NCBI GenBank assembly: GCA_016776505.1
Contig: JADHTG010000009.1
Location: 6,946-70,945, forward strand
Length of the DNA stretch: 64,000 nt
DNA from: Bacteroidota bacterium
Lineage (GTDB): Bacteria; Bacteroidota; Bacteroidia; CAILMK01; JAAYUY01
Direction: 5' to 3'
The notes beneath the pieces were generated by a model. It searched no databases, was not told the origin of the DNA, and saw nothing but the letters and a program-made list of their open reading frames with translations. The first letter of the stretch is position 1. Each line of letters opens with the position of its first letter. Positions 8,543 to 45,100 of this stretch are shown here, piece by piece. Position numbers and translations under genes: made by a program.

Positions 8543-9541
8543 ATGAATCTTGGTGACTATAGATTTGAGGATCCTTGGTTTTTTTGGTTCTTACTAATTA
8601 TACCCCTAATTGTTGGCTGGTATATCTGGAAGTATAAAAATAGAATTCCCGAACACACCATATCTTCCATAACTTCTATCAAAGGAATAAAAAGACCCTG
8701 GAAAGCACGTTTCAGGCATGCATTATTCTCATTCCGTATTTTGGCTATAGCGCTGATCATAATCGCATTAGCCCGCCCTCAAAAGTCATTTGATAACAAA
8801 AAAGTGACCACAGAAGGGATTGATATAGTCATTGCCCTGGATATTTCTTCCAGTATGCTTGCAATGGATTTCAAACCCGATAGACTGGAAGCGTCAAAAA
8901 GCATTTCCCAGGATTTTGTGAAGGGCAGGGCAAATGACAGGATTGGACTTGTGGTATTTGCTGCGGAGAGTTTTACCCAGTGCCCTATCACAACGGATCA
9001 TAAGGTGCTTACGAATTTAATAAGTGAGATTAAAAGTGGCATTATTGAAGATGGTACGGCCATTGGCCTGGGTCTTTCAACAGCTATTGATCGACTAAAG
9101 GATAGTGGTGGTAAAAGCAAGGTGGTCATTCTTTTAACTGATGGGGAAAATAATACAGGATTCATTAATCCAATGACGGCTGTAGAGATTGCGCAAACAT
9201 TTGGAGTCCGGATTTATACCATTGGTGTGGGAACGATAGGCACAGCACCTTATCCTGTTCAAACTCCTTTTGGAATGAGTTACCAGGATATGGAAGTCAG
9301 GATTGATGAAGATTTATTGCAGGACATAGCCAGCCTGACAAATGGAGCATATTTCAGGGCTACCAGCAATAACAAATTGAAAGAAATCTATGAAGAGATC
9401 AATAAAATGGAGAAGAACAAAATTGAAGTCGAAGCCTACCAAAGGTTTAGTGATAAATATTTGATCTTTGCTCTCATTGCATCTGTTTTATTGTTTCTCG
9501 AACTCTTTTTAAGGAATTCATTATTAAAAAGTTTTCCCTGA
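8543..9541 (+). CDS. batA: Aerotolerance protein BatA (VWA domain, membrane)
   Basis: N-terminal TM segment and a vWA domain with MIDAS motif (DIVIALDISSSM ... LTDGENN). Confidence 0.8.
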   Translation: MNLGDYRFEDPWFFWFLLIIPLIVGWYIWKYKNRIPEHTISSITSIKGIKRPWKARFRHALFSFRILAIALIIIALARPQKSFDNKKVTTEGIDIVIALDISSSMLAMDFKPDRLEASKSISQDFVKGRANDRIGLVVFAAESFTQCPITTDHKVLTNLISEIKSGIIEDGTAIGLGLSTAIDRLKDSGGKSKVVILLTDGENNTGFINPMTAVEIAQTFGVRIYTIGVGTIGTAPYPVQTPFGMSYQDMEVRIDEDLLQDIASLTNGAYFRATSNNKLKEIYEEINKMEKNKIEVEAYQRFSDKYLIFALIASVLLFLELFLRNSLLKSFP

Positions 9542-10590
9542 TGGACTTAGTGCGTTTCGAACATACCGACATTTTATTTGCATTGTTTTCATTGCTTTTT
9601 CTATTGTTTCTATTTTTACACAGGATGAATTGGGCTAGGAAAGTACTGAAGTCAATTGGTGATGAACAGCTTGTACTGAAATTGGTAAAGAACAAACCAA
9701 GGTATAAATACCAAATCAAATTCATTCTCTTTTCATTTGCCCTTGCATCGCTCATACTGGCTATGGCAAATCTTCAATTTGGTTCGAAAGTCGAAAAGAT
9801 GAAGAGAAAAGGCATAGATCTCGTGATTGCATTGGATCTTTCCAGGAGCATGCTGGCAGAGGATATTACTCCCAATCGATTGGAAAAATCGAAACAATTT
9901 ATTTACCGCTTAATTGATAAGCTGGAAGGAGATCGGATAGGGATCATTGTTTTTGCCGGAAATGCGTATGTTCAAATGCCTGTGACAATTGATCATACTG
10001 CTGCTAAGTTATTCCTGTCGAATGTTAATACTTCTTTACTTCCAACCCAGGGAACAGCCATAGGTGACGCCATTGATCTCTCGCATGAAATGTTTGAGTC
10101 AGGAGATAAAAAACACAGAACTTTACTCATTATTTCAGATGGAGAAAATCATGAAGGAGATGCTTACGAATCCGCTAAATCTGCAGCAAAGGAAGGATTA
10201 ATGATTTACACGGTGGGCATTGGAACCTTAAAGGGAGCACCTGTTCCCATATATCACAACAACCGTCAGGTGGATTATCAAAGAGACAAAAACAATAGTA
10301 TTATTTTAAGCAAATTAAATGAAAGCATGCTTCAGGAGATAGCTGTACTGGGTCATGGTGAATATTTCAGAATCACCAATTCAGGCGATGACCTGCGAGA
10401 TTTGATTAAAAGCATTAATAAGCAGGAAAAGAAAGAGATTGACTCTAAGGTAGTAAGCAATTACAAAAGTCAGTTTCAGTTTTTTCTGGTTTTAGCATTG
10501 GTATTTTTACTTGTTGATTTCATTATTTTTGAAAGGAAAAGCAAGTTGACATTTAGTTTTAAAAGCCTTAAACTAAAAAGAAATGTATAA
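9541..10590 (+). CDS. batB: Aerotolerance protein BatB (VWA domain, membrane)
   Basis: A second vWA protein (DLVIALDLSRSM ... ISDGENH) with a C-terminal TM segment. Its start overlaps the batA stop. Confidence 0.8.
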   Translation: MDLVRFEHTDILFALFSLLFLLFLFLHRMNWARKVLKSIGDEQLVLKLVKNKPRYKYQIKFILFSFALASLILAMANLQFGSKVEKMKRKGIDLVIALDLSRSMLAEDITPNRLEKSKQFIYRLIDKLEGDRIGIIVFAGNAYVQMPVTIDHTAAKLFLSNVNTSLLPTQGTAIGDAIDLSHEMFESGDKKHRTLLIISDGENHEGDAYESAKSAAKEGLMIYTVGIGTLKGAPVPIYHNNRQVDYQRDKNNSIILSKLNESMLQEIAVLGHGEYFRITNSGDDLRDLIKSINKQEKKEIDSKVVSNYKSQFQFFLVLALVFLLVDFIIFERKSKLTFSFKSLKLKRNV

Positions 10591-11353
10591 ATTAGTTTTA
10601 ATCATATGGATGATTGTAACGACATTCATCAGTTATAGTCAGAATGAGCATCATTTGGTCAGAAAAGGAAATAAGCTTTATTCCAAAGACCAATTTGGAG
10701 ACGCTGAGGCAAAATATAAGAAAGCGCTGGAAGTAGATCAAAAACACTATGAAGGCAGCTTTAACCTGGGTGATTCTTATTTTGAGCAAGGCAGATTTGA
10801 TGAGGCTATAACACAATTTACAATAGCTGCCCATTCAACCGATGATGATATTTATAAAAACAAGGCTTATTACAATCTTGGAAACGCAAATCTGGAGGCC
10901 TTTAAAAGCATCAATCAAAGTGCAGATCAGGAAGACATGCAGAAAAAAATGCAGTACCTTGACAACAGCATTGAAGCCTACAAAAATGCATTGAAAATCA
11001 ATCCTCAAGATCAGGAATCCAAGTACAATCTTTCTTATGCACTGAAACATAAGCCAGAAGGAGGACAACAATCCAAGCAGCAAAATAAGGATCAGGAAAA
11101 CAAAGACCAGGAAGAAAAAGAGAAAGAAAAGCAAGAAGAAAAAAAGCAGAATCAGGATCAACAAAAAAACAAGGACAAACAAGAAAAAGAGAACAAACAG
11201 CAAGCTCAACCAAAACCTGATGAACAGAAAATGGATAAGCAGGAAGCAGAAAAACTATTGAAAAAACAAGAAGAAAAAGAAAAAGATGTGCAGAAAAAAG
11301 TCTTGCAAAAAAAAGAAAAGCCAGTTAAAGTGAAAATTGAGAAGGAATGGTAA
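10583..11353 (+). CDS. batC: BatC-like TPR protein with K/E/Q-rich low-complexity tail
   Basis: N-terminal signal/TM segment and TPR repeats (AEAKYKKALEVDQKHYEGSFNLGDSY), followed by a roughly 100-aa KEQ-rich tail. Its position in the bat operon supports the call. Confidence 0.65.
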   Translation: MYKLVLIIWMIVTTFISYSQNEHHLVRKGNKLYSKDQFGDAEAKYKKALEVDQKHYEGSFNLGDSYFEQGRFDEAITQFTIAAHSTDDDIYKNKAYYNLGNANLEAFKSINQSADQEDMQKKMQYLDNSIEAYKNALKINPQDQESKYNLSYALKHKPEGGQQSKQQNKDQENKDQEEKEKEKQEEKKQNQDQQKNKDKQEKENKQQAQPKPDEQKMDKQEAEKLLKKQEEKEKDVQKKVLQKKEKPVKVKIEKEW

Positions 11354-13161
11354 ACAAGGGAGCTCACATATTGCTTTTCACATTCCTGTTTATTGTAGTT
11401 TCTCATCTTACATGGGCACAATCTTTTACTGCCTCCGTTAATTCAAATGAAGTTAGCCCAGACCAACAAATTAATGTAACATTTACCATTGAAGGCAATT
11501 TTCAGCGAATTACGGATCTCAATTTTCCCGAATTCAATGGATTCCGCGTGTTGTCGCAACCCCAGCAATATCAATCCACTTCCAATATCAATGGAGTAGT
11601 GAGTAAAAATTATCAGTTTACAATTGCCATCAAACCTATCTCAAAAGGGAAATTCACCATTCAGCCTGCATCTGTTAAACTGGATGGGAAGCTTTATAAA
11701 ACAAAAAGTATTGATATTCAGGTTGTAAGTGCAGATAATATCTCAAAAAAACCAAAATCTGGTGATACTAAAACCGTTATATCTGATAAAGATGTATTTG
11801 CCAGAACATTAATTAGCAAATCAAAAATTTTCATGGGAGAGGCCTTTTCGCTTACTCAAAAAGTGTATTCACGTAAGGAAATAATGGATATTTCGGATAT
11901 TAAATTTCCTCAATACGAGGGATTTCTTGTCGAAGATATTGATATAGGACAGCTAAGGGTGGAAACTGAAGTAATTAATGGAATTCAATTTTATGTCATT
12001 GTATTACAAAAGAAGATCCTTTTTGCCCGGAAATCTGGAAAAATTACATTGAAACCCCTTAAACTCAAACTGGATATTAAAGAAATAAAAACCAGAAATG
12101 CGAGGAATCAGGCAGAGCAAATGTGGTATGGTCCTACGATCAGATATGCTGAGAAAGTAACTCAATCGGTTACTGCCCCAAGCGTTAGTGTTCAGGTTGA
12201 AAGTTTACCACCTGAACCAGCAGGATTTGAAGACCTTATTGGCGATTTTAATTTGAGTGTTTCAACAGACAAGGAAACAACAAAGATCAATGATCCGATC
12301 ACATTAACCATCAAGGTGGAAGGGACAGGAAATCATCACTTATTATCAGATTTTAACCTGGATTTACCAGATGATATTGAAACTTATGAACCAAAAATAA
12401 AACAAAATCTTTCGCTTACAGGCAACGGCTTTAAGGGCTATAAATCTTTTGAGTATTTATTGGTTCCCAGAAAAGCGGGTCACTTTAATTTACCACCTGT
12501 TACAATCATTTATTTCGATGTAAAAAAAGCTATTTACAGAACCCTGTCAAGCGATCAGATTCAAATCAAGGTAGAAAAAGGAGAAGGAAATTATACCGGA
12601 GATTTACCCACAGGATTAAGTAAAAAGGAAATTGAACTCAGGGGAAAGGATATTCAGTTTATCAAACAGGAATTAGGTGAATTTACCTATAAAAACAAGC
12701 CATTTATAGGCTCCTTTATTTTTTACCTTTATTATTTAATACCTGCTTTATTATTTCTGTTATTTATTATTTTTTATAAAAGGTTTACGAAGTTCAGAAA
12801 TAATGTGGCTTTATTCAGGCAGAGGAAAGCTTCTTCCTACTCTCATAAAAAACTGAAGAAAGCTAAAAAGATGTTATCTGCGAATAATACAGTCAGCTTT
12901 TATGAAGAGGTTTTAAATGCTATTAACGGTTACCTGGGGGATAAATTGGTGTTGTCTTCAGCTGAATTGTCGAGGGAGAAAGTGAGTGAAGTATTATTAG
13001 AAAAGCAGCTAAATCAGGAATTGATCAAGGATCTTTTTGAATTAATTGATGCATGTGAGTTTGCCAGGTTTTCTCCGTCCTCCATTCCAGGGAACATGAA
13101 TTCAACTTATCAACAGGCTTACACTTTATTGATAAAATTGGAAAAAGCAATTAGCAAATGA
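11347..13161 (+). CDS. batD: BatD-like protein (secreted/membrane-anchored)
   Basis: 604 aa with a signal peptide, a beta-rich body and a TM helix near residue 450 (FIFYLYYLIPALLFLLFIIFY). Its position between batC and batE supports the call. Confidence 0.6.
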   Translation: MVNKGAHILLFTFLFIVVSHLTWAQSFTASVNSNEVSPDQQINVTFTIEGNFQRITDLNFPEFNGFRVLSQPQQYQSTSNINGVVSKNYQFTIAIKPISKGKFTIQPASVKLDGKLYKTKSIDIQVVSADNISKKPKSGDTKTVISDKDVFARTLISKSKIFMGEAFSLTQKVYSRKEIMDISDIKFPQYEGFLVEDIDIGQLRVETEVINGIQFYVIVLQKKILFARKSGKITLKPLKLKLDIKEIKTRNARNQAEQMWYGPTIRYAEKVTQSVTAPSVSVQVESLPPEPAGFEDLIGDFNLSVSTDKETTKINDPITLTIKVEGTGNHHLLSDFNLDLPDDIETYEPKIKQNLSLTGNGFKGYKSFEYLLVPRKAGHFNLPPVTIIYFDVKKAIYRTLSSDQIQIKVEKGEGNYTGDLPTGLSKKEIELRGKDIQFIKQELGEFTYKNKPFIGSFIFYLYYLIPALLFLLFIIFYKRFTKFRNNVALFRQRKASSYSHKKLKKAKKMLSANNTVSFYEEVLNAINGYLGDKLVLSSAELSREKVSEVLLEKQLNQELIKDLFELIDACEFARFSPSSIPGNMNSTYQQAYTLLIKLEKAISK

Positions 13162-13931
13162 AGAAGGATGTGAATAATATATTGATCTTTTGGCTGCTTG
13201 TGTTGATCCCAGCTTTCGTTTTTCCTGATCCAGTGAAGGTGGAGGGATTATTTAATGAAGCAAATGAGTTATATCAAAAACAGGAATACCACAAAGCCAT
13301 TGTTCTTTATGACTCGATAATTAATTTGGGGATAGAATCTGCCAACCTGTTTTATAATACTGCAAATACAAATTACAAGCTGGGAGAATACTCAAAAGCG
13401 ATATTATATTATGAAAAAGCAAGACTTTTAGGAGGAAATCAAAAGGACATTTTATATAATTTGGATCTTGCTAATCTGAATATTAGCGATAAGATTGATG
13501 CAATTCCTGATTTCTTTTTTGTCAGAATGTGGAATAACACCCTCTATTATATGAGTTCAAAAAATTGGGGCTACACCAGTATAATGCTTTTTATACTACT
13601 CGTTCTGCTGGTAATTTTCACCATGGTCACCCGTTCTGTGTTCATAAAAAAGATGATTATTCCTCTTATTGTTATTATGGCATTATTCTTTTGTTTAGCC
13701 ACAGTCTTTACTCTTCAGAAATCTTCAATTGAAAGAGACAGCCATTATGCGATCATTTTCGAACCTACAGTTTATGTGATGAGTGCACCTGATGATCAAA
13801 GCACAGATTTGTTTTTAATTCATGAGGGATTGAAAGTCCGTTTACATGAAAAAATCAACGATTGGGTCAAAATCGAATTGGCTGATGGTAAAATCGGATG
13901 GATTCGCGAGGAAAATTACAGGGAGATATAA
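13158..13931 (+). CDS. batE: BatE-like protein (TPR + TM + C-terminal SH3b domain)
   Basis: TPR repeats, two TM helices and a C-terminal SH3-like segment (NDWVKIELADGKIGWIREENY). Confidence 0.6.
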   Translation: MKKDVNNILIFWLLVLIPAFVFPDPVKVEGLFNEANELYQKQEYHKAIVLYDSIINLGIESANLFYNTANTNYKLGEYSKAILYYEKARLLGGNQKDILYNLDLANLNISDKIDAIPDFFFVRMWNNTLYYMSSKNWGYTSIMLFILLVLLVIFTMVTRSVFIKKMIIPLIVIMALFFCLATVFTLQKSSIERDSHYAIIFEPTVYVMSAPDDQSTDLFLIHEGLKVRLHEKINDWVKIELADGKIGWIREENYREI

Positions 13932-14012: not shown

Positions 14013-14747
14013 TTAATTCTCCAGGCCTGAACTGATCACTTCCTTAGCATGTTGCATAAGATCTTCTACATTTTCCCAGCTATAGTCAGAAATTAAAATA
14101 GGGGGATGGAAAATCAGGCTGGCTGTTCCAGGAAAAATATTCAGTGTACCGGGTTCATGTATTTTATTCGTTCCCTTCACACTAACGGGCAAAAGAGGTA
14201 AATTCAGATCAAATGCCATCTTAAAAGCTCCTTTTTTGAAATCTGCAAGTCCCCCTGCTTTTGTACGGGTACCTTCAGGGAAAAATACGATACAAGTGCC
14301 ATCTTTTATGCTGCTTTTGGCATTTTCAATAGTTTCCAGGGCTGCTTTAGGACTGGATCGATCCACAAAAATATGCCCTAATTTTTTGCATGCTACACCC
14401 AGACCGGGAACTTTCCTGAGTTCCTGTTTCATAACCCATTTAAAATCAACACCCAGTCGGGCATACAAAACCAATATATCGAAACTGCTGCTGTGATTGG
14501 CAATAATAACATAGGATTGTTTCTTCTGGATGTATTTTTTACCCACTTTCCTTAATCGGATAGGAGTGAGGATACACAATGTACGTGCCCAAATCACACC
14601 TCCTAAATAGCTGGCAATCTTCGGGTTGCTCAGATAATATACAGCCACGGTGAAAAATCCAAAAAATAATGTAAGGATCAAGGCAAGTGGAATAAAAATA
14701 ATCCACTTATAGGGTTGGTATAATATCCAGAGAATTTTCCGCATCAA
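14013..14747 (-). CDS. plsC: 1-acyl-sn-glycerol-3-phosphate acyltransferase family (PlsC/LPLAT)
   Basis: N-terminal TM segment, HxxxxD acyltransferase motif (ANHSSSFD) and an FPEGTR motif. Confidence 0.8.
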   Translation of the reverse strand: MMRKILWILYQPYKWIIFIPLALILTLFFGFFTVAVYYLSNPKIASYLGGVIWARTLCILTPIRLRKVGKKYIQKKQSYVIIANHSSSFDILVLYARLGVDFKWVMKQELRKVPGLGVACKKLGHIFVDRSSPKAALETIENAKSSIKDGTCIVFFPEGTRTKAGGLADFKKGAFKMAFDLNLPLLPVSVKGTNKIHEPGTLNIFPGTASLIFHPPILISDYSWENVEDLMQHAKEVISSGLEN

Positions 14748-14867
14748 AAATATTGCGCAAATATAAGGAAACTGAAATATATCAGGTGGGAGTTGATTAG
14801 CCTGAAGAAAGCTAAAAATCAGCTTGAAGATAAATTATTACCGTATCTGATTTGGTTTTTATTATTT

Positions 14868-15293
14868 TTAATATTGAATTTGATCATATTCTCTGATAAT
14901 ATAAACCAAATAATCACCCAAATACTTAAATCCTTCTTTCTTATACAGCTTCAATGCGATCTCGTTGTTTTTATGAACTTCCAGCTTTATTTGCAAACCT
15001 GTTTTTCGTGCAAATTTCAAGCTTTCATCTAATAACATCTTAGAGAATCCCCGCCCCTGGTAGGCTGGTAAAATACCAAAATGATGAAGGTATAATCTCC
15101 TGGCGTCGTTTGTTATCCAACTGCTTCCAATCAATTTATCATCCTGTAAAAGGACTATTAATTTTCCCCCGGATTTAATTGTATTTTCTATGATTTCCTT
15201 ATTATCTCCGCGGAATTTACCCCCCATGCGTGTTATTTCCCAAAGGGATTGCAACTGATCATAATCTGTAGTTTGGTAATCTCTGATAGTCAT
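14868..15293 (-). CDS. GNAT family N-acetyltransferase (141 aa)
   Basis: Acetyl-CoA binding motif A (QGRGFSKMLL) and overall GNAT topology. It is the last gene of the putative KamA-like operon. Confidence 0.8.
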   Translation of the reverse strand: MTIRDYQTTDYDQLQSLWEITRMGGKFRGDNKEIIENTIKSGGKLIVLLQDDKLIGSSWITNDARRLYLHHFGILPAYQGRGFSKMLLDESLKFARKTGLQIKLEVHKNNEIALKLYKKEGFKYLGDYLVYIIREYDQIQY

Positions 15294-15300
15294 AACCTTA

Positions 15301-15993
15301 CTAGCTGTTACTCAAATATACTTTCCGCATATATTTTGAAAAGGAAGGAGTTCCTTCTCCTCGTTTTATTACTTCCAATAATTTGTCTTTGTTCCTTTCG
15401 AAAATAGAACCAAACAGGATTTTTATATTTCGATACCTCAGCATATCCGGATGCAATATAGTGGAAGGACCCAAAAGATAAACCCGGCAATTGACAGATG
15501 TATTATTCACGATGGATAAAAAACTTTGATTGAATACGCTTGTAGATGTCAGGATTAAAGTATCAGCGTTTGCAATATATTTATTCTGTTTTTCAAAAGG
15601 GGTCATTTTTCCAGTAGTATCATGCAAATCGAAAATAGATAAAGGAATGTTTTCTGCCTCAAATTTTCGAACCAGGGATTTGAAATATCCGATCATTACA
15701 ACACGACCCCCCTTTATGAATTCTATTTTATCAAAAATATCGGATGTATCATCATATGCAATTTGATAATTAAATAATGCATTAAAATAAGCGTTCAAAA
15801 TAATACGATGCGGGATTTTTGTTAAATCAGGAACATCAAATTCAGCTTCGACCGGGTGAAGAAGGGTAGCACAAATTCCTATTTGGCCATTATTTAATTC
15901 AACTGCCACATATTTTTCGCCAAAAGTAATATTATTAATATGATCCTTTTGGAATCCTTCCTTGTCATAAAAATAGCGTAAGGGTTCAAGCAT
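15301..15993 (-). CDS. DUF4213/DUF364-like Rossmann-fold protein
   Basis: The C-terminal half matches the DUF364 pattern as I recall it (VVMIGYF...ADTLILTSTSVFNQSF...VYLLGPSTILHP). It is only 4 nt downstream of the KamA-like gene and 8 nt upstream of the GNAT gene. Confidence 0.5.
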   Translation of the reverse strand: MLEPLRYFYDKEGFQKDHINNITFGEKYVAVELNNGQIGICATLLHPVEAEFDVPDLTKIPHRIILNAYFNALFNYQIAYDDTSDIFDKIEFIKGGRVVMIGYFKSLVRKFEAENIPLSIFDLHDTTGKMTPFEKQNKYIANADTLILTSTSVFNQSFLSIVNNTSVNCRVYLLGPSTILHPDMLRYRNIKILFGSIFERNKDKLLEVIKRGEGTPSFSKYMRKVYLSNS

Positions 15994-15995
15994 CC

Positions 15996-18182
15996 TTAAA
16001 CTTCAAGATTTGTGAACTCTTTGGTCAGTTCAAACTTATATTCCGGATATTCATACATGGAAACCCGGGGTTCGGTTTCACCGATGGAATAACCATAAAT
16101 GTTCTCATAATCTTCAATTTGTTCCCCTAAAAACTCCAGCTGTTCCAGGTATTCCGAGATGGATTTAGATTCAATGATAACCACTTTGCCCATGCTGTTG
16201 ATGATCGGGCTGTGCGAACGCGTATGATCGTGATCAAATTCAAGAATGCGTCTTCCATATCTCGTAATACCTATCACACGGTAAGTAAGACTTTTTCCTA
16301 CACCAGGAAGATTAAGCACATTTCTGTCAGTAGCTAAAAACGGCACACCAGCCTCTAATCTTAAATCATTTATATTTTTAATCATATTTTCTGCCTGCAG
16401 AGGGAAGTCCTTGATCCTGTCAAAATATTTTTCTTCAATATGTCCTACCACTTTTTCTTCTAACTGTTCCTGAACAGCTCTTTCATTTGTGGCAAAATTG
16501 TGATTGTTTTCCATATAGCCTTTCACTGAAAAGGTGTAATAATTTAACACACCGATATCGTTTAAAACTTTCCTTAGTTTGGAGGTATGTCCTCTGCGAG
16601 ATGCAGCTGTTGTAAATACAAGCTGGTTAGTGATTGTCCAGCCAGATTCTATCAGTCTTCGTATTCCAAGGGCAGCCTCAGGAGTTACTTCCATAGGCGA
16701 TTGGAAATGAGTCTGGATAACAAATTGCTTGATTCCAATTTCAGATGCTTTTCTTTTGAAATCTTTAAGAATGCTTGTTAATTCCGATGTAATTCGTTGA
16801 GGCAAATAAACAGGCAAACGGGTCCCAAGCCTGACTCTTATAATTTCTGCATATTTTTCTCCATTTTTCCTTTTCTTATTTGCTTCAATTTTACGAATAG
16901 CCATCTCATACAGCTCATCTAATAATCTTTTCAATGACTTGTCGGAACTCATGAGTGCATCCCCACCTGTAATCAACACATCTCTAAGCTGAGAATCATT
17001 TTCATAATATGACATCAAATGTTTCAGTTTTTCCTGCCAGGTTTCCCTGGGTTTTAGTTTCTCCAGGTTGAAATTTAAATTTCCACGCTGAAAATCATAC
17101 ATGCGTTGACAGGATGAACAAAGTCCTCCACATGCTCTTCCTACTGTATCCGGGATTAGAATCGCCACTTCTGGATATCTTCTGTGAATATTGTTGTGAG
17201 AAGGCAGAATCCACCCTGCAGCATTTGGTTTGCCGCTTTCAACTTTATCTTCTTTTTCCCAGGCTACTATCTGTCCGAATTCTTTAACCAGTTGCTCGCT
17301 ATAAAGGATGTAATGCCGGATGGCAAGATCAGCTCCTATGGCAAAATAGGGTACTCTTACGTGCAATAATGACAAATAATAAGGATTAACAAAAAAAGGA
17401 ATTCCCATTTCTTGAGCTTCATAAAGTATCTTCATGCTATCCGGATCCAGAGAGTTTCCCAACAGTTCATTGAGCAAATCAGGGTTTCGAATGGCAAATC
17501 TCAGATGAAAAACACTTTCATTCCACCATTCCAGCATTTGAAGGAATTTTTGTTCCCGTGAACTTCCTTTTTTAAAGATATATTTTGAATCTTTAATTTC
17601 ACCCGAATCCATTTTGTCGATGTAAATATTAATAATGCGATCCCGGTTTTCTTCACGTAGTTTCATTATTCTTGGATCGATTCCAGTTGGCCAGCGATCA
17701 ATCCATTCAAAAACCTGATCTTTTGAAGGGGTAATTCGTTTGCTTTTACCACAAAACTGCCTGAACAACTGAATCATGTCATCAAAGAAGTATGGTTTTG
17801 CTCCACCAGTTCCTTTGGTAACAGCCAGCCAAATAAGTTTAATGGGATTTGATACTGCTTTTTCTCCCCTCAGGTTTAAATCTTCATAAGTTCTTCCTGC
17901 ATTGTCGATGTAATCTAAAATCCTGATTGCTGCTAAATCTTTCCATTGTAAACTCTCATAGGCCTGTCGTCCTTTTTTTACTCCTTTGTAAAATGACAAG
18001 GCATCCGGATTTTTTGATAAGTCTGACATCACCCAGTTTTTGACACCGATCAGGGCCTCCGTTTCGTTTTTTGACTCCCTCATGATCTCTTCCAGCATTG
18101 GATTTTCATTTAAAAGCACTCGAAGTAATTTATGCGAATGAACTGTTATCGCAATTTTATCCAGTTTTTCGATCTGATGCAT
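15996..18182 (-). CDS. KamA-family radical SAM aminomutase, long form (728 aa)
   Basis: Radical SAM CxxxCxxC (CGGLCSSC), KamA-family PYYLSLL motif upstream, and PLP-region motif LITGGDALM. It carries about 300 aa of extra N-terminal sequence relative to canonical lysine 2,3-aminomutases. Confidence 0.8.
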   Translation of the reverse strand: MHQIEKLDKIAITVHSHKLLRVLLNENPMLEEIMRESKNETEALIGVKNWVMSDLSKNPDALSFYKGVKKGRQAYESLQWKDLAAIRILDYIDNAGRTYEDLNLRGEKAVSNPIKLIWLAVTKGTGGAKPYFFDDMIQLFRQFCGKSKRITPSKDQVFEWIDRWPTGIDPRIMKLREENRDRIINIYIDKMDSGEIKDSKYIFKKGSSREQKFLQMLEWWNESVFHLRFAIRNPDLLNELLGNSLDPDSMKILYEAQEMGIPFFVNPYYLSLLHVRVPYFAIGADLAIRHYILYSEQLVKEFGQIVAWEKEDKVESGKPNAAGWILPSHNNIHRRYPEVAILIPDTVGRACGGLCSSCQRMYDFQRGNLNFNLEKLKPRETWQEKLKHLMSYYENDSQLRDVLITGGDALMSSDKSLKRLLDELYEMAIRKIEANKKRKNGEKYAEIIRVRLGTRLPVYLPQRITSELTSILKDFKRKASEIGIKQFVIQTHFQSPMEVTPEAALGIRRLIESGWTITNQLVFTTAASRRGHTSKLRKVLNDIGVLNYYTFSVKGYMENNHNFATNERAVQEQLEEKVVGHIEEKYFDRIKDFPLQAENMIKNINDLRLEAGVPFLATDRNVLNLPGVGKSLTYRVIGITRYGRRILEFDHDHTRSHSPIINSMGKVVIIESKSISEYLEQLEFLGEQIEDYENIYGYSIGETEPRVSMYEYPEYKFELTKEFTNLEV

Positions 18183-18336
18183 GATGTTAGCATTTTAAAA
18201 CCCGAAAATTTATCACAACGCAAGTAATGGTGTTCCCATTTTTTATGGTGACCCAATCAAAGCAGTTTCCATCAAAAGAATAATGCATTGCTTCAATTGT
18301 CCGTTTTTCCTCACTTTCGGTATTTATTTATTCACA

Positions 18337-18840
18337 TTACTTTCCCAGATAATTTCGGGAAAATATATCATAACTCATTAATATTTCTGACAGATAAAAA
18401 TTTGAATTGTATCGAAGTAAAGATACAGCAAAAATGATCTCCTTTCCTTTATATTCATATTTCAGAGAGATTCCGAGCAATTTATTTTCTACTGCATTTT
18501 CACCATATAAAGCTCCGATATAGTATAAATCGTCTAAATTTATTTTGGATTTTTTAGCTGATTCCATGATGTTGTTAAAATCCGTTATAAATTTCTCGCT
18601 GTTAATCACCTGATTCAGCAGTTGATCATCGGTCAGGAATTGTGTTTCTTCCGGCAAAGCTGCTCTCCATATAATGGGTGTTGGTTTTAGTGCAAGCAAA
18701 TTATTTATATCCTTTGATTGAAGAGCTGATATAAAAAAGATCGCAAATTCATCAAGTTTTGGATCATTTACTTTTGTTTGAGAAACAACTCCATTAATGC
18801 AAAACATGAATACAATTGCACTTAGATATATTGGCCTCAT
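18337..18840 (-). CDS. Hypothetical secreted protein
   Basis: Signal peptide with no recognisable motifs. It is 4 nt downstream of the methyltransferase gene. Confidence 0.4.
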   Translation of the reverse strand: MRPIYLSAIVFMFCINGVVSQTKVNDPKLDEFAIFFISALQSKDINNLLALKPTPIIWRAALPEETQFLTDDQLLNQVINSEKFITDFNNIMESAKKSKINLDDLYYIGALYGENAVENKLLGISLKYEYKGKEIIFAVSLLRYNSNFYLSEILMSYDIFSRNYLGK

Positions 18841-18843
18841 TAA

Positions 18844-19440
18844 TTATACTTTTTTTGCTATTAGAATCAGGTTATTTGATTTGCCGTCATGTAACAATCC
18901 TTCTTTCAAAAGCACTTCTTTTTCCTCAAATTTAATAAAATCCAGTCCATTAAAATCATTTTCAAGCATTTCCTTATTGTAAAGTAATTCAAGATTTTTA
19001 GGTCCTCCGGTGCTATTATTTATTTGTGCTTTTTCAAATGCCATCAGTAAAATGTATCCACCTGTTTTTAATGACTTGATCATTCTTTTGTGCACCATTT
19101 CGCGTATGGAAGGATGTAGATGTAAGTAAATCAAAGCAATGGCATTGTAATGATCTTCCACCAGTTCATAATCCATGACATCAGAAACGCTATAATTTAT
19201 CTGTACATGATTCGCTTTTGCAAGTTTCATTGCCTTCTTTTTCCCTTCTACACTAAAATCTACAGCATCCACTATCCACTTGTGTTTTGCGGCATAGACT
19301 GCATTCCGTCCTTCTCCTTCAGCAGCAAATAAAATTCGGCCTGCTTCGGATTGATCAATAAACTCTTTGACAAGGATATTGGGTGCTTTGCCATATATGT
19401 ATTCTTTATCAGTATAGCGCTGATTCCACATTTCTTTCAT
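18844..19440 (-). CDS. Class I SAM-dependent methyltransferase (TehB/small-molecule MTase-like)
   Basis: SAM-binding motif I region (ILFAAEGEGRNAVYAA) followed by an acidic post-I motif (VDAVDFS). Confidence 0.65.
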   Translation of the reverse strand: MKEMWNQRYTDKEYIYGKAPNILVKEFIDQSEAGRILFAAEGEGRNAVYAAKHKWIVDAVDFSVEGKKKAMKLAKANHVQINYSVSDVMDYELVEDHYNAIALIYLHLHPSIREMVHKRMIKSLKTGGYILLMAFEKAQINNSTGGPKNLELLYNKEMLENDFNGLDFIKFEEKEVLLKEGLLHDGKSNNLILIAKKV

Positions 19441-19459
19441 ACGAAATTGAATAGATATT

Positions 19460-19590
19460 CTAAGTTTCTCCTGCTAAAAATAAGTTTTGCGTTCAGTCGA
19501 AAAAACTTCGATTTCACATGCATTTTTTTCATTTCTCTTTTTGAAATTTCAAAGGATAAAAAATACCTGTATATTTGAAAAATAATTCAT
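19460..19590 (+). repeat. Copy A of a conserved ~120-nt intergenic promoter module
   Basis: ctaagtttctcctgctaaaaa...gttcagtcgaaaaaacttcgatttcacatgcattttttt...tttgaaatttcaaaggataaaaaatacctgtatatttga. Confidence 0.6.
19570..19577 (+). promoter_or_regulatory. Bacteroidetes-type -7 box TATATTTG with upstream palindromic TTGAAATTTCAA (-33 region)
   Basis: Matches the TAnnTTTG consensus about 19 nt upstream of the ATG at 19596. It is part of a roughly 120-nt module also present upstream of 37357. Confidence 0.45.
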
Positions 19591-19595
19591 TTGAG

Positions 19596-20342
19596 ATGAA
19601 ATTATTAACCAAAAATTTAGCCAATATTTTCACCCTGACAAATCTCTTTTTAGGATTTACCGGTATAATTAATACACTATATGGTGATCCTGTGGCAGGA
19701 GCTTTATTATTGATTCTTGCAGCCGTTTTTGATTTTTTAGATGGGGCAACTGCCAGGATACTAAAATCTCAAAGCAAACTGGGCAAACAACTTGATTCGC
19801 TAGCCGATATTGTTAGTTTTGGGATTCTGCCAGCCACCATATTACATGTCCTGTTAATTAAATCTCACCAGGATTGGATTTATCGGATGCATTTTACGGG
19901 CCTTCCATTGGTCAGCTTGCTTGCTTTTATTTTTGTTATTGCAGCTGCTTTGCGACTGGCAAAATTTAATCTGGATGATAATCAACTTCACGTTTTTAAA
20001 GGATTACCAACCCCTGCTGCTGCTTTATTTGTTGCTGCATTGCCATTAATCATGCGTTTTGATTTATACGTCTTGAGCTATGAATCTTTTTATCTTGAAA
20101 GCATCATTCTAAATCCCTGGGTTCTCCTGTTGATCACATTCGGATTATCCTTTCTTATGTTATCCAATATTCCACTTTTGGCGATTAAATTTTCAGATTG
20201 GTCATGGGAAAATAATATGCCTAAATACCTCCTGCTACTTATTTCGATTCCACTCTTTATCTTTCTGTTATTTCTTGCAATACCCATTATTATTATGCTA
20301 TATATTGCCTTTTCTTTCATTTTTAAAACGAAGATCCAATGA
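19596..20342 (+). CDS. CDP-alcohol phosphatidyltransferase (phosphatidylserine synthase-like)
   Basis: CDP-OH_P_transf motif DFLDGATARILKSQSKLGKQLDSLADIVSFG in a multi-TM protein. The ORF track opens at a TTG (19575), but the ATG at 19596 (MKLLTKN...) is the more likely start. Confidence 0.7.
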   Translation: MKLLTKNLANIFTLTNLFLGFTGIINTLYGDPVAGALLLILAAVFDFLDGATARILKSQSKLGKQLDSLADIVSFGILPATILHVLLIKSHQDWIYRMHFTGLPLVSLLAFIFVIAAALRLAKFNLDDNQLHVFKGLPTPAAALFVAALPLIMRFDLYVLSYESFYLESIILNPWVLLLITFGLSFLMLSNIPLLAIKFSDWSWENNMPKYLLLLISIPLFIFLLFLAIPIIIMLYIAFSFIFKTKIQ

Positions 20343-42176: not shown

Positions 42177-45100
42177 TTGAAAAATCTATACCTGTTTTTT
42201 AGATTTCTTAAATGCTGTTCTTTCATCCTGGTTTTCAACATCTGTTGCCATTCTGTACATGCCCAGGTAACAGTATATACTGAAAACTTTGAGCACGGGA
42301 GTAATATGCCTTCTGGTTGGTCCCAGGAATATGTTTATGATACTTTAAACTGGATTTTTACCAGTGGAGGTCAAAGTGGTCACCCATCGGCTGCACATGG
42401 TGGCAGCTACAATGCATTATTGTATTATGGAGGGATATACAGAACAACCAAACTGATTTGCAAACCTCTTAACCTAACTCCATATTCTAATTTACAATTG
42501 AAGTTCTGGCATACACAGGAAGAATATTCAGGAGACCAGGATAAATTAAAAGTATTTTACAAGACTTCAGCAAGTGGTAGCTGGGTTCAATTAGCAAGCT
42601 ATACAACGAATGTTTCCTCCTGGACGCAACGTACTATTACCTTACCAAATCCAAGTTCCAACTATTACATTGCATTTGAAGGTGAAGCCAGATATGGATA
42701 TGGTGTATGTGTTGATGATGTACTGATCACGGGTACTGTTTCAAATGGTTTAGACATCAGTTGTGTCAGTATCTCATCTCCTTTAATTTGGGGAGTAGGT
42801 AATAATACTCTTAAGATCAGCTATAAAAATATGCGTTCAGACACTATTTTCAATGCTGATTTTGGCTATAAATTGGATACGAATACAGCGGTTATTGATA
42901 CGAATAAATCGACTGGAACTTTGCTGGCCAACCAGGAAAAGGATTATACTTTTCCCGCTTCATTGAGTATTAGTAAAGGAAACCATTATATCAAGGTATG
43001 GGCAAACAAACCCAATCGCACAAATCCGGACGATGTGCCTGCAAATGATACATTTACACTGAATTTTGGAACGGGTATCAAGGATACATTCTATATCGAT
43101 AAAAGTGGACAGGGTGATTACACCACTTTTGCCGCGGCAGTAGCTGATTTGAACAACGGGGTTACGGGTCCGGTTTGGTTTATCGTGAAACCAGGTACAT
43201 ATACGGAAAAGGTTGTGATAGGAGAAATTCCGGGTGCGGATTCAACCAATACCATCACATTTGATGGATTGTATAAAGACAGCACATTCCTGTCATATAC
43301 AGGGACTTCTGCAGCAAATAGAGCCACATTATCCTTTAAAGGGGCCGATTATGTGACCTTTAAAAATATGACCATCAAGAATGAGGGCAATACTTATGCA
43401 GTTGCAGTATTGTTAAGGAATAAATCAGACCACAATACATTTTTCAATTGCAACCTGAAGCTGAAAACGACTGTTACCAGCGGATATGCTCAGGTGATAT
43501 TAGCGTCGGCTAAAGAAAATAGTACTGGTGCCAATGGGGATAATTGCAACTATACATCATTTGAAAACTGTTTAATTGAAGGAGGGCAGTATGGTGCCCG
43601 CATGCATGGAACAAATACAGCTTCTATGGCTGTAAATAACAGTTTTGTTAATTGTAATTTTACTAATCAGTGGTATTTTGGATTGTATTTGTATTACCAA
43701 CAAGGATTTAACATCTCTTATTGCAAAGTGGCAAACTTCAGACATGCATCTGCCTATGGTCTAATTAACTATTATGGTGCAGGTTCTAATATAGATGGCA
43801 ATAGTATACAAGCGGGTATTCATGCTCTTTATTTGTATCGTGAAAACTACTATAAACAAAATAATTCTTCTTATGTAACAAACAACATGATATGCAATTT
43901 CAAGAATACAGTATATCAGAGAGGAATATATGCAGTTTCATATTGTTATAACTTAAACATACTTCACAACAGCATTCTTGTTAATGGCACGTCTACTTCT
44001 CCTACTTATGCTGCTATTTATATATATTACTATTGTAATAATTCGGTCATTAAAAACAATTTACTAGCTAGCTTGAATAAGACAAACATTCTTGCCATGC
44101 TTTATGCAGGAACAGTTTCTGTGGATTATAATGACTACTATTATGACACCAACTCAAATGTTAAATTCTATATTAATTACAGTTATGCCAACTTCAACAC
44201 CTTTAAATCCATTGCATCCTATATCAACTATCCACATGACCTGAATTCCTTTGATAATGTGAATCCCGGATTTGTTTCAAATACCAACCTGCATCTTGAT
44301 ACATTAAGTTCCATAAGCCTGATGGCCCCGGCAGCTGGCATTTCAAACGACTTTGATAATGAAAGCAGAAATTTGAATTTTGGAGTAAATTTAGGAGCTG
44401 ATGAAATCCCACATCCAAACCGTGACCTGGATATCATTAGTATTGATACACCTGCCGTGCTTAAGTCGGGCTCCAATATCGTTTCCATAACACTTCGAAA
44501 TATGGGTACCGATTCCATTGTACCACAAAAACTTTACCTGAATTATAGGCTAAATGGTGGAAATCCTGTAAATGATTCTTTGACGCTAAGCTCGAAATTA
44601 CCTCCTTTCGGCAGTATAAAATTTTCGTTTCAAACACCTGTAAATATTACAGGATCCGGAAGTTATGAATTCTGTGTTCAACTAAGCCCCGGGATATACA
44701 ATGATCCGGATAGCCTGGATGAGTTATGTGTCACCAAATGTCTGGGTAAAATAGATACCTTTATGATCGATCCCAGTGGTAATGGTGATTTTACTACCAT
44801 AATGGCAGCTGTCAATTCACTGCAAACATGTGGTATTTCAGGAGCAGTTACTTTTATTTTAAAAGCGGGAACATATGTTGAGCGGGTTGTAATCCCTGAA
44901 ATCCCGGGTGCAAATTCGGTCCGAACTGTTACCTTTCAAGGTGTTCATAAAGATAGTGTTGTACTTGTCCATGCAGGAACCTCAACAGCAAAATCTGTTA
45001 TTTTGCTAAATAGTGCAGATCATATAGTGATCAAAAATATGAGAGTATTAAATAATGGAAACAGTTATGCGAGCTGCATCCATTTTATGAATGGAGCTGA

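Follow-up and report, generated by a model that had tools for sequence, protein, structure and literature searches.

A long-form KamA-like aminomutase homologue beside a DUF364 protein and a small GNAT acetyltransferase in a Bacteroidota genome: a probable lineage-specific juxtaposition

The closest described systems are built around aminomutases related to lysine 2,3-aminomutase (LAM), whose structure is known from Clostridium subterminale (PDB 2a5h, 416 aa). In LAM the epsilon-ammonium group of lysine is reportedly bound by Asp293 and Asp330 (Lepore et al. 2005), and glutamate 2,3-aminomutase (Eam) reportedly has Lys and Asn at these two positions (Ruzicka & Frey 2007). The AblAB pair synthesises N-epsilon-acetyl-beta-lysine; its aminomutase gene is close to a GNAT gene, AblB proper being a protein of about 277 aa (Cytobacillus), and Ilyobacter has AblA and AblB as one fusion protein of 716 aa. 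EpmA and EpmB serve the beta-lysylation of EF-P. The PF04016 (DUF364) family includes Dhaf4260 (PDB 3l5o), the protein of PDB entry 3npg and Streptomyces Orf5. Orf5, a methyl-azetidine-carboxylate synthase, cyclises 4''-methyl-SAM supplied by a radical-SAM methylase; it is the sole DUF364 enzyme to have been characterised, its substrate is derived from SAM, and its subfamily co-occurs with radical-SAM genes (PMC12930334).

Here we report on three adjoining genes in a window of 64,000 nucleotides from a Bacteroidota bacterium (contig JADHTG010000009.1), which encode a long KamA-like protein (KamL hereafter), a DUF364 protein and a small GNAT. As in AblAB, an aminomutase gene is close to a GNAT gene. 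We consider it likely that the trio is a lineage-specific juxtaposition and not a conserved module, with KamL a stand-alone aminomutase that probably does not act on lysine, the DUF364 protein a member of a subfamily found in another gene context, and the GNAT a generic enzyme. As a conserved system the three-gene pathway does not merit further pursuit, which spares effort on a false lead.

Layout of the gene cluster

The original prediction had placed three packed minus-strand ORFs and a PlsC-like ORF in this part of the window, and all four were recovered with exactly the same coordinates:

15996..18182, minus strand: KamL, 728 aa, long-form KamA-like PLP/radical-SAM aminomutase homologue (ORF list, TIGR00238 match)
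15301..15993, minus strand: DUF364 (DUF4213/DUF364) protein, 230 aa (PF04016)
14868..15293, minus strand: small GNAT N-acetyltransferase, 141 aa, RimI-like (PF00583)
14758-14765, minus strand: candidate Bacteroidetes-type -7 box TATATTTG upstream of the PlsC gene (by eye, tentative)
14013..14747, minus strand: PlsC-type 1-acylglycerol-3-phosphate acyltransferase, 244 aa (PF01553, TIGR00530)

The tight packing was borne out, with gaps slightly smaller than the 4 and 8 nt first given: the sequence reads TAA-GG-ATG (2 nt) between the KamL and DUF364 genes and TAG-TAAGGTT-ATG (7 nt) between the DUF364 and GNAT genes, and no terminator-like sites were seen between the trio genes on the minus strand. 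From these junctions the three genes are probably co-transcribed in the source clade, possibly with translational coupling. The PlsC gene follows downstream after a gap of 120 nt and may form a separate transcription unit. Its product does belong to the PlsC family, as had been proposed (PF01553, 109 bits; TIGR00530, 113 bits, which passes the cut-off of 102.95). Nothing was found in favour of the further suggestion that PlsC yields a lipid-linked amino acid, and the 120-nt gap and the candidate -7 box stand against it.

Gene neighbourhoods of KamL, the DUF364 protein and the GNAT

KamL loci outside the source clade were surveyed at 83 sites (6 kb on either side; KamL copies 56-76% identical, from at least 8 phyla). 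The DUF364, GNAT and PlsC genes and the two genes upstream of the trio were absent from all 83 by tblastn within 6 kb. When all neighbouring ORFs in the same intervals were clustered, no family occurred at more than 11 of the loci, and no neighbour of any kind was conserved. The gap upstream of KamL is usually sizeable (median 193 nt), and half of the loci have an upstream gene that is encoded on the other strand. The trio is confined to close relatives with 82-86% KamL identity, all of which keep the gene order; in these genomes about 16 kb of flanking genes is also syntenic, so the adjacency of the three genes is not independent evidence of a shared function. One complete chromosome has KamL at 1.03 Mb and an AFOR-DUF364-ThiF-ThiS cluster at 2.66 Mb.

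These data bear on the pathway first proposed for the locus, in which KamL would make a beta-amino acid in the source clade, the GNAT would N-acetylate it, as happens in AblAB, and the DUF364 protein would add a step, giving a compatible solute or another small metabolite, possibly lipid-linked through PlsC. We regard this pathway as quite unlikely. The shared strand, the 2-nt and 7-nt junctions free of terminator-like sites, the constant order in every relative with 82-86% KamL identity and the precedents of AblA with a GNAT, including the Ilyobacter fusion, are in its favour; since the order also persists where DUF364 identity within the clade falls to 59-70%, some clade-specific functional link may exist. 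Against it, DUF364, GNAT or PlsC genes are near none of the 83 more distant KamL copies, 81 of 83 DUF364 loci lack both KamL and the GNAT and show other contexts (below), GNAT orthologues are located elsewhere, the conserving clade is shallow and syntenic over the whole stretch of about 16 kb, and a candidate -7 box precedes PlsC. Co-conservation of the three genes in related genomes, on which the original prediction had staked itself, is absent from KamL, DUF364 and GNAT loci elsewhere. The comparison with AblAB also weakens in detail: a KamL-GNAT pair was found at 0 of the 83 KamL loci (within 6 kb), the GNAT does not resemble AblB, KamL has no Asp at the position of LAM Asp293 (both below), and the Ilyobacter fusion is a 'long form' different in kind from KamL.

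The 230-aa protein had been assigned to DUF364 and DUF4213. The former assignment held (PF04016, 92.9 bits, cut-off 23), while the latter fell just short (PF13938, 22.4 bits, cut-off 23.5); many orthologues have both domains. In a profile search of the PDB its solved relatives were remote (3npg, E 9e-6; 3l5o, E 0.033). A survey of 83 DUF364 loci found ThiF-like genes at 31 and ThiS-like genes at 30, in most cases immediately downstream and in the same orientation, and a gene for an aldehyde:ferredoxin oxidoreductase (AFOR) of about 717 aa at 25, mostly divergent and upstream. KamL, GNAT and PlsC genes together occurred at two loci, both from the source clade. Among sufficiently long contigs, the nearest relatives from outside the clade (50-54% identity) are mostly linked to AFOR. 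The protein is thus an orthologue of a Bacteroidota subfamily that is normally encoded beside AFOR, ThiF/MoeB-like and ThiS/MoaD-like genes. Judged from this context, the subfamily would act in connection with tungsten- or molybdopterin-cofactor enzymes, and the recurrent cluster gives a large family of domains of unknown function a setting in which its role can be tested.

A tie between the DUF364 protein and KamL through SAM chemistry, with the former processing a SAM- or KamL-derived intermediate in analogy to Orf5, seems to us very improbable. Enzymes of the LAM type recycle their SAM and do not release it in modified form, the dominant neighbours of the subfamily are AFOR, ThiF and ThiS, and KamL is without a DUF364 gene within 6 kb at its 83 loci. 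A radical-SAM gene does adjoin DUF364 at 4 of the 83 DUF364 loci, and the first characterised DUF364 enzyme does use a SAM derivative and come from a subfamily that co-occurs with radical-SAM genes; the setting of Orf5, however, is a B12-radical-SAM methylase gene cluster, in contrast to the AFOR/ThiF/ThiS context of the subfamily described here (PMC12930334).

The 141-aa protein is a GNAT, as first stated (PF00583, Acetyltransf_1, 56.9 bits against a cut-off of 20.7), with a motif A of QGRGFS (Q/RxxGxG/A). Its best NCBIfam match was RimI, which at 53.9 bits stayed below the cut-off of 86.4. An AblB-like role found no backing, as the NCBIfam search gave no match to the AblB model (TIGR03827 type) and BLASTP no similarity to Cytobacillus AblB (E 1.2), a protein about twice as long. 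Orthologues elsewhere stand in the arrangements NfeD-GNAT (twice) and Rrf2-GNAT-PlsC. The protein would be a generic small RimI-like acetyltransferase.

Family, fold and candidate substrate of KamL

The four motifs named in the original prediction, CGGLCSSC, PYYLSLL (residues 267-273) and LITGGDALM (403-411) in KamL and QGRGFSKMLL in the GNAT, were all found in the predicted proteins, and KamL exceeds LAM in length by about 300 aa, as first stated (728 against 416 aa). Its membership of the KamA family was sustained in part: an HMM match, the fold and the cluster motif speak for it, whereas the curated cut-off of TIGR00238 is not reached (143 bits, E=1e-41, against 199.2) and no Pfam family, including Radical_SAM and LAM_C, matched at E<=0.01. 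As the TIGR00238 match is below cut-off and covers residues 218-576 only, KamL is, as judged from its sequence, a divergent KamA-like protein. An AF2 model (pLDDT 83, pTM 0.88) was compared with the PDB by Foldseek, and LAM (2a5h) was the sole significant match (E 5.5e-13, 479 columns, TM 0.67 normalised to LAM). The features of KamL considered below are:

17538..18182, minus strand: N-terminal extension, residues 1-215, all-helical with two short hairpins
17109..17132, minus strand: cluster motif C351-x3-C355-x2-C358, followed by Q359-R360, invariant in alignment A2
16521..16523, minus strand: K554, in the alignment column of LAM Asp293 (ligand of the substrate epsilon-ammonium group), a charge reversal
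16293..16313, minus strand: N624-L-P-G-V-G-K630, putative PLP-lysine motif, with N624, P626, G629 and K630 invariant in A2

C351, C355, C358 and R360 align with LAM C125, C129, C132 and R134, the last being the alpha-carboxylate ligand. A2 shows no variation at R335-Y336-P337, G406-G407-D408, H492, N519-Q520 or K630. KamL has the RYP, GGD, THF and NQ motifs in common with LAM, together with the alpha-carboxylate Arg and a putative PLP-Lys motif. K630 was paired with LAM K337 by eye (compare DAPGGGGK in AblA), as MAFFT mis-registers this segment and the HMM alignments end before it. With this catalytic machinery kept (cluster Cys, RYP, GGD, carboxylate Arg, putative PLP Lys), KamL is likely a 2,3-aminomutase, and would use the radical mechanism of LAM to move the alpha-amino group onto C-beta in a free amino acid. 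In A2 no Cys beyond the three cluster ligands is invariant, and the Cys-based zinc site of LAM is accordingly absent. KamL further differs from LAM by its N-domain of about 215 residues and, judged against the shorter sequences of a second long group (below), by two insertions, at residues 429-446 (about 18 residues) and 580-611 (about 32). The helical N-domain carries a conserved motif, GTGGAKP.FF.DM..LFRQ (residues 124-144); a search for structural matches to it returned none, and this lack of structural precedent is one reason for biochemical attention.

The column of LAM Asp293 holds Asp in AblA (2 sequences), BlsG and EpmB, and Lys in KamL (3) and the second long group (3). K554 is invariant in A2; a separate LAM alignment stops at Q291, paired with S552. 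The counterpart of LAM Asp330 is N624 or L623, and is probably N624, a pairing that requires a gap of one residue. K554 and N624 together would fit the Lys/Asn signature reported for Eam, K554 being well aligned and N624 dependent on the gap. Lys, and probably Asn, in place of the side-chain Asp pair of LAM suggest that the substrate is probably neither lysine nor arginine, and that its side chain is probably anionic or neutral. The best of the substrate-specific NCBIfam models was glutamate 2,3-aminomutase (TIGR04368, 115.1 bits, cut-off 650), followed by AblA (TIGR03820, 95.8, cut-off 525.4), BlsG (87, far below its cut-off) and EpmB (64.1, cut-off 369.3); the lead of the glutamate model is small, and KamL is under every curated cut-off. 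Conversion of glutamate to beta-glutamate is our leading candidate, offered as a guess. Compared with Eam, KamL is about 300 aa longer, and its N-domain is outside the Eam model. EF-P beta-lysylation of the EpmA/EpmB type was considered and rejected on the EpmB score and on the lack of any conserved neighbour within 6 kb at KamL loci, unlike Klebsiella, where efp adjoins epmB.

That KamL is a plain lysine 2,3-aminomutase, making beta-lysine for osmoprotection or lysine fermentation with its extra domains as decoration, we hold to be highly doubtful. Names such as 'lysine 2,3-aminomutase' in the source annotation agree with it, as do the retained cofactor motifs and the position of LAM as the only significant solved relative. 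The Lys at the Asp293 position is nevertheless invariant where AblA, BlsG and EpmB keep Asp, the AblA model scores far below its cut-off and under the glutamate model, the Cys-based zinc site is missing, and kamDE/kdd/kce or ablB neighbours were found at 0 of the 83 KamL loci (within 6 kb). A bolder extension of the non-lysine reading takes KamL-type proteins for a widespread class with a new specificity, acting on an acidic or other non-basic amino acid in a pocket formed by Lys554 and Ser-Arg-Arg (528-530), under control of a structurally new N-domain, and with the product handled further, in the source clade alone, by the co-transcribed DUF364 protein and GNAT. We think this unlikely; if true, the class would have a specificity so far unassigned to the 2,3-aminomutase family.

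As a stand-alone enzyme, KamL has over 8000 homologues (71-100% identity among the 120 listed) and is present in at least 8 phyla; proteins of its type occur in Bacteroidota, Ignavibacteriota, Nitrospinota, Myxococcota and further phyla. The clade is tight, with about 68% identity across phyla, and gut Bacteroides and Parabacteroides have homologues that are 56-60% identical in the core. KamL would belong to a clade of its own among the 2,3-aminomutase homologues, one that evolves slowly and whose members are 700-730 aa long, depend on PLP and [4Fe-4S]/SAM and are normally encoded alone. It is among the more strongly conserved uncharacterised enzymes in this analysis, is found in genetically tractable gut Bacteroidales, and combines an apparently complete radical-SAM/PLP apparatus with a charge reversal in the presumed substrate pocket, all further reasons for biochemical attention. 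Identification of its substrate would add to the very few specificities on record for radical-SAM aminomutases (Lys, Arg, Glu), and might uncover a beta-amino acid produced by gut and sediment anaerobes. Many members of the family are named 'lysine 2,3-aminomutase' in the JGI annotation.

The second group of long KamA proteins (P0224, P0238, P0245) comprises sequences of 613-625 aa that end in ...WYYY. These resemble KamL in a homologous N-terminal region, shorter and more divergent, in the Lys at the Asp293 position and in the SRR and TDxxVxNxPxxGK motifs. Their core is 29-32% identical to that of KamL, they are without its insertions and C-terminal tail, and unlike KamL they pass TIGR00238 (314-323 bits). 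Their best substrate-specific model is likewise TIGR04368, at 236-251 bits.

Gene order in the window and conservation of the trio

The genes for KamL (a 728-aa KamA-like radical-SAM/PLP aminomutase homologue), a DUF364 protein and a GNAT protein, together called the trio, lie on the minus strand at exactly the ORF coordinates of the original prediction. The motifs that it named (CGGLCSSC, PYYLSLL, LITGGDALM and QGRGFSKMLL) were all found in the sequence, and the tight packing holds with gaps of 2 nt (TAA-GG-ATG) and 7 nt (TAG-TAAGGTT-ATG) instead of 4 and 8 nt.

Features of the trio, its downstream flank and the RNA match in the window
15996-18182, minus strand, KamL, ORF of 728 aa
15301-15993, minus strand, DUF364 protein, ORF of 230 aa
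14868-15293, minus strand, GNAT, ORF of 141 aa
14013-14747, minus strand, PlsC-like acyltransferase, ORF of 244 aa
63042-63406, minus strand, tmRNA gene (Rfam RF00023, 146 bits), the sole gathering-level Rfam match in the window

Two more genes of the same strand lie upstream of KamL, one for a TehB-like methyltransferase (198 aa) and one for a protein of no family (167 aa), separated from KamL by a 154-nt gap. The Rfam search of 14700-19700 gave no riboswitch or RNA-leader match upstream of KamL even at E<=1. A scan for sigma-70 promoters and terminators returned counts no better than those of shuffled sequence and was thus uninformative for a Bacteroidota genome. The sole words enriched upstream of KamL in 71 loci were T-rich, of the TTTTTGTA type, which may represent the generic Bacteroidetes TAnnTTTG promoter box or merely AT-rich upstream DNA.

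KamL loci were collected by a scan with one genome per species, which returned 80 loci at 64-76% identity from the Bacteroidota, Ignavibacteriota/Chlorobiota, Nitrospinota, Acidobacteriota (Aminicenantes, Thermoanaerobaculia), Myxococcota and other 'Deltaproteobacteria', Desulfuromonadales, Calditrichota, Gemmatimonadota and Chrysiogenales; three more were added by exact look-up (83 in total). Within 6 kb on either side of KamL in these 83 loci there were no matches to the window's DUF364, GNAT or PlsC proteins or to its two upstream proteins, and clustering of every neighbouring ORF gave a largest family present in at most 11 of the 83, so that KamL has no conserved genomic partner. Upstream of KamL the median gap is 193 nt, and half of the loci have the preceding gene on the other strand, which, together with the lack of conserved neighbours, indicates that KamL is normally a stand-alone gene.

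The trio recurs only in relatives with KamL 82-86% identical, where the order is methyltransferase, 166-aa protein, KamL, DUF364, GNAT, PlsC and BatD/TPR/VWA genes. A functional link specific to this clade might be read from the retained adjacency; because the whole stretch is syntenic, however, the adjacency is inherited and gives no independent evidence of such a link, which we consider improbable. The trio had been proposed as a pathway to an N-acetylated beta-amino acid, possibly lipid-linked. Being restricted as a unit to one shallow lineage and absent from the 83 more distant loci (within 6 kb), this pathway is largely refuted, and the 'operon' is not real as a system beyond that lineage. 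The three genes would be co-transcribed in the window's clade without forming a pathway.

Homologues from the human gut occur in B. finegoldii (713 aa), P. distasonis (704 aa) and Phocaeicola massiliensis with a core identity of 56-60%, in records that are filed as plasmids yet carry chromosomal-type genes. The P. distasonis and B. finegoldii orthologues have the accessions WP_009275016.1 and WP_237922996.1, respectively. Neither DUF364 nor GNAT lies near the homologue in the two annotated gut records (B. finegoldii and P. distasonis). A 233-aa gene following KamL in locus L001 was considered as DUF364 and rejected, and small ORFs clustering with KamL in four loci proved to be unrelated DUF308-like membrane proteins, joined through one read-through ORF. 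One Bacteroidales MAG (locus L058, 5995-8190 and 8319-10505) carries tandem full-length KamL paralogues of 731 and 728 aa.

Family, fold and active site of KamL

KamL matches no Pfam model. Its placement in the KamA family is favoured by the TIGR00238 match (E 1e-41, residues 218-576 only), the motifs and the fold of lysine 2,3-aminomutase (LAM), but not by the curated cut-off, with 143 bits against 199.2. Of the substrate-specific models, that for glutamate gives the highest score (115 bits), ahead of lysine (AblA; 96), arginine (87) and EpmB (64); each score falls far short of its cut-off. More than 8000 relatives are in the databases, the best 120 being each of about 728 aa and 71-100% identical; clustering at 50% left few full-length representatives (P0121, P0122, P0124 and P0126, at 50-54% identity). 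The clade is already recorded as 'KamA family protein' but is uncharacterised, and our literature search found nothing on long KamA forms. A set of 81 full-length sequences has a median identity of 68% between pairs and at least 97% conservation at 251 of the 728 positions, and sequence clustering tracks taxonomy only loosely. A second, shorter long-KamA group (tier 2, 613-625 aa), about 30% identical to KamL, passes TIGR00238, and its closest substrate model is also that for glutamate.

The AlphaFold model (pLDDT 83, pTM 0.88) has LAM (PDB 2a5h) as its single significant solved match. Residues 305-328 and 347-376 (window about 17055-17270) have pLDDT <50, yet they rank with the family's most conserved stretches (e.g. 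AWEKEDKVE.GKPNAAGW.LP); these segments may order only upon binding of the cluster, cofactor or a partner. Three proteins considered as a stand-alone N-domain family (P0200, P0211 and P0220) end mid-domain and were rejected as apparently truncated metagenome fragments.

Profile alignment placed LAM 14-291 onto KamL 215-550, with C125/C129/C132 corresponding to C351/C355/C358 and the alpha-carboxylate ligand R134 to R360. Also invariant in KamL are R335-Y336-P337, G406-G407-D408, H492, N519-Q520 and K630 (within NLPGVGK). With its cofactor ligands conserved, KamL should, judging from the alignment, be catalytically competent as a PLP/SAM/[4Fe-4S] aminomutase whose substrate is a free alpha-amino acid. 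The side-chain site differs: in an alignment with two AblA, one BlsG and one EpmB from annotated records, the LAM Asp293 column holds Asp in all four of these basic-substrate enzymes, whereas KamL, the gut homologues and tier 2 have Lys (K554 in KamL), a reversal of charge. LAM D330 most plausibly aligns with the invariant N624, at the cost of a one-residue gap. Ruzicka and Frey are said to have described Lys/Asn at these two positions in 2007 as the signature of glutamate 2,3-aminomutase. The LAM loop with the zinc ligand C268 is replaced by invariant S528-R529-R530, and since KamL has no invariant Cys beyond the three cluster ligands, the Cys zinc site of LAM is absent.

KamL would thus perform a 1,2-amino shift of the LAM type on a free amino acid that is not basic. 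Its substrate is probably neither lysine nor arginine; glutamate, which would give beta-glutamate, is the leading candidate, put forward tentatively. KamL combines sub-threshold family scores, an altered specificity pocket and a domain without structural precedent, and remains a clear, tractable target for enzymology.

Two other long architectures were encountered. The 716-aa 'ablA' product of Ilyobacter polytropus pILYOP01 (locus L173, 1435-3585) is a canonical LAM with a Cys-rich zinc motif and a C-terminal AblB-like GNAT region, a fusion that represents a route to a long-form aminomutase other than that of KamL. The fusion protein P0253, of 1357 aa and met in the representative search, has a DnaJ-like N-terminus joined to a tier-2 KamA-like core, with a metzincin-like motif, HEIGHLFGLAHC, at the C-terminus.

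Genomic context of the DUF364 protein

The DUF364 part of the family assignment was supported by Pfam (92.9 bits), while the DUF4213 part fell just under its cut-off. Orthologues at 40-73% identity were taken from three large assemblies and 80 metagenome loci (83 in total). A ThiF/MoeB-like gene is present in 31 of these, mostly downstream on the DUF364 strand after a gap of about 29 nt, a ThiS/MoaD-like gene in 30, and a gene for an aldehyde:ferredoxin oxidoreductase (AFOR) of about 717 aa in 25, mostly upstream and divergent. MoeB and MoaD form the sulfur-transfer pair in molybdopterin/tungstopterin synthesis. Minor neighbours are a gene of 280 aa directly downstream (12 loci), one of 388 aa directly upstream (9 loci), one for a Cys-rich ATPase-like protein (6 loci) and one with a CxxxCxxC motif (4 loci); judged by sequence alone, they look like DUF89-type, aminotransferase, MinD/4Fe-4S ATPase and radical-SAM genes, respectively. 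KamL, GNAT and PlsC accompany DUF364 in only 2 of the 83 loci, both of the window's own clade.

The nearest relatives outside that clade (50-54% identity) are mostly AFOR-linked among contigs that are long enough. On the complete chromosome OY762280.1, KamL lies at 1.03 Mb and the AFOR-DUF364-ThiF-ThiS cluster at 2.66 Mb. AFOR, ThiF and ThiS were sought in the 64-kb window and none was found. From this context, DUF364 would serve tungsten/pterin-cofactor enzymes, which fits the pterin-related role suggested by structural genomics (PMC2954201). Biochemical characterisation is on record for only one DUF364 enzyme, whose reaction is the cyclisation of a methylated SAM (PMC12930334), so the role of the window's protein is argued from its neighbours. 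The AFOR, DUF364, MoeB-like and MoaD-like cluster offers a useful and testable tungsten/pterin-cofactor context for the family; it recurs in Bacteroidales (L088 3530-7594, L090 3599-7493, L093-L112 and other surveyed loci), with the AFOR of about 717 aa divergent to the other three.

GNAT, PlsC and other genes of the window

Family search agreed that the 141-aa protein is a GNAT, with many orthologues in Bacteroidota at 55-66% identity. It gave no match to the AblB model, nor does it resemble a genuine AblB in sequence, and it would be a generic acetyltransferase. Its context is distinct from that of DUF364: two of three orthologues looked up follow an NfeD gene and the third is in an Rrf2-GNAT-PlsC arrangement (L179 3590-5217, a Sphingobacteriales MAG) lacking KamL and DUF364, so that the GNAT-PlsC pair may predate the trio. 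The 120-nt gap between GNAT and PlsC in the window contains a tentative candidate for a Bacteroidetes-type TATATTTG box, and the 244-aa PlsC scores as an ordinary 1-acylglycerol-3-phosphate acyltransferase.

Directly downstream of PlsC, 8543-13931 (plus strand) encodes VWA-like (349 aa), TPR-like (256 aa), BatD (604 aa; Pfam) and TPR-like (257 aa) proteins, a run that resembles a Bat (aerotolerance) operon. The run is syntenic in close relatives, whose records list the Pfam domains. The ORF at 42177-54032 (plus strand) encodes a giant T9SS-secreted surface protein of 3951 aa, in which about 25 PKD repeats are combined with pectinesterase/beta-helix and laminin-G domains and, at the C-terminus, a Por_Secre_tail.
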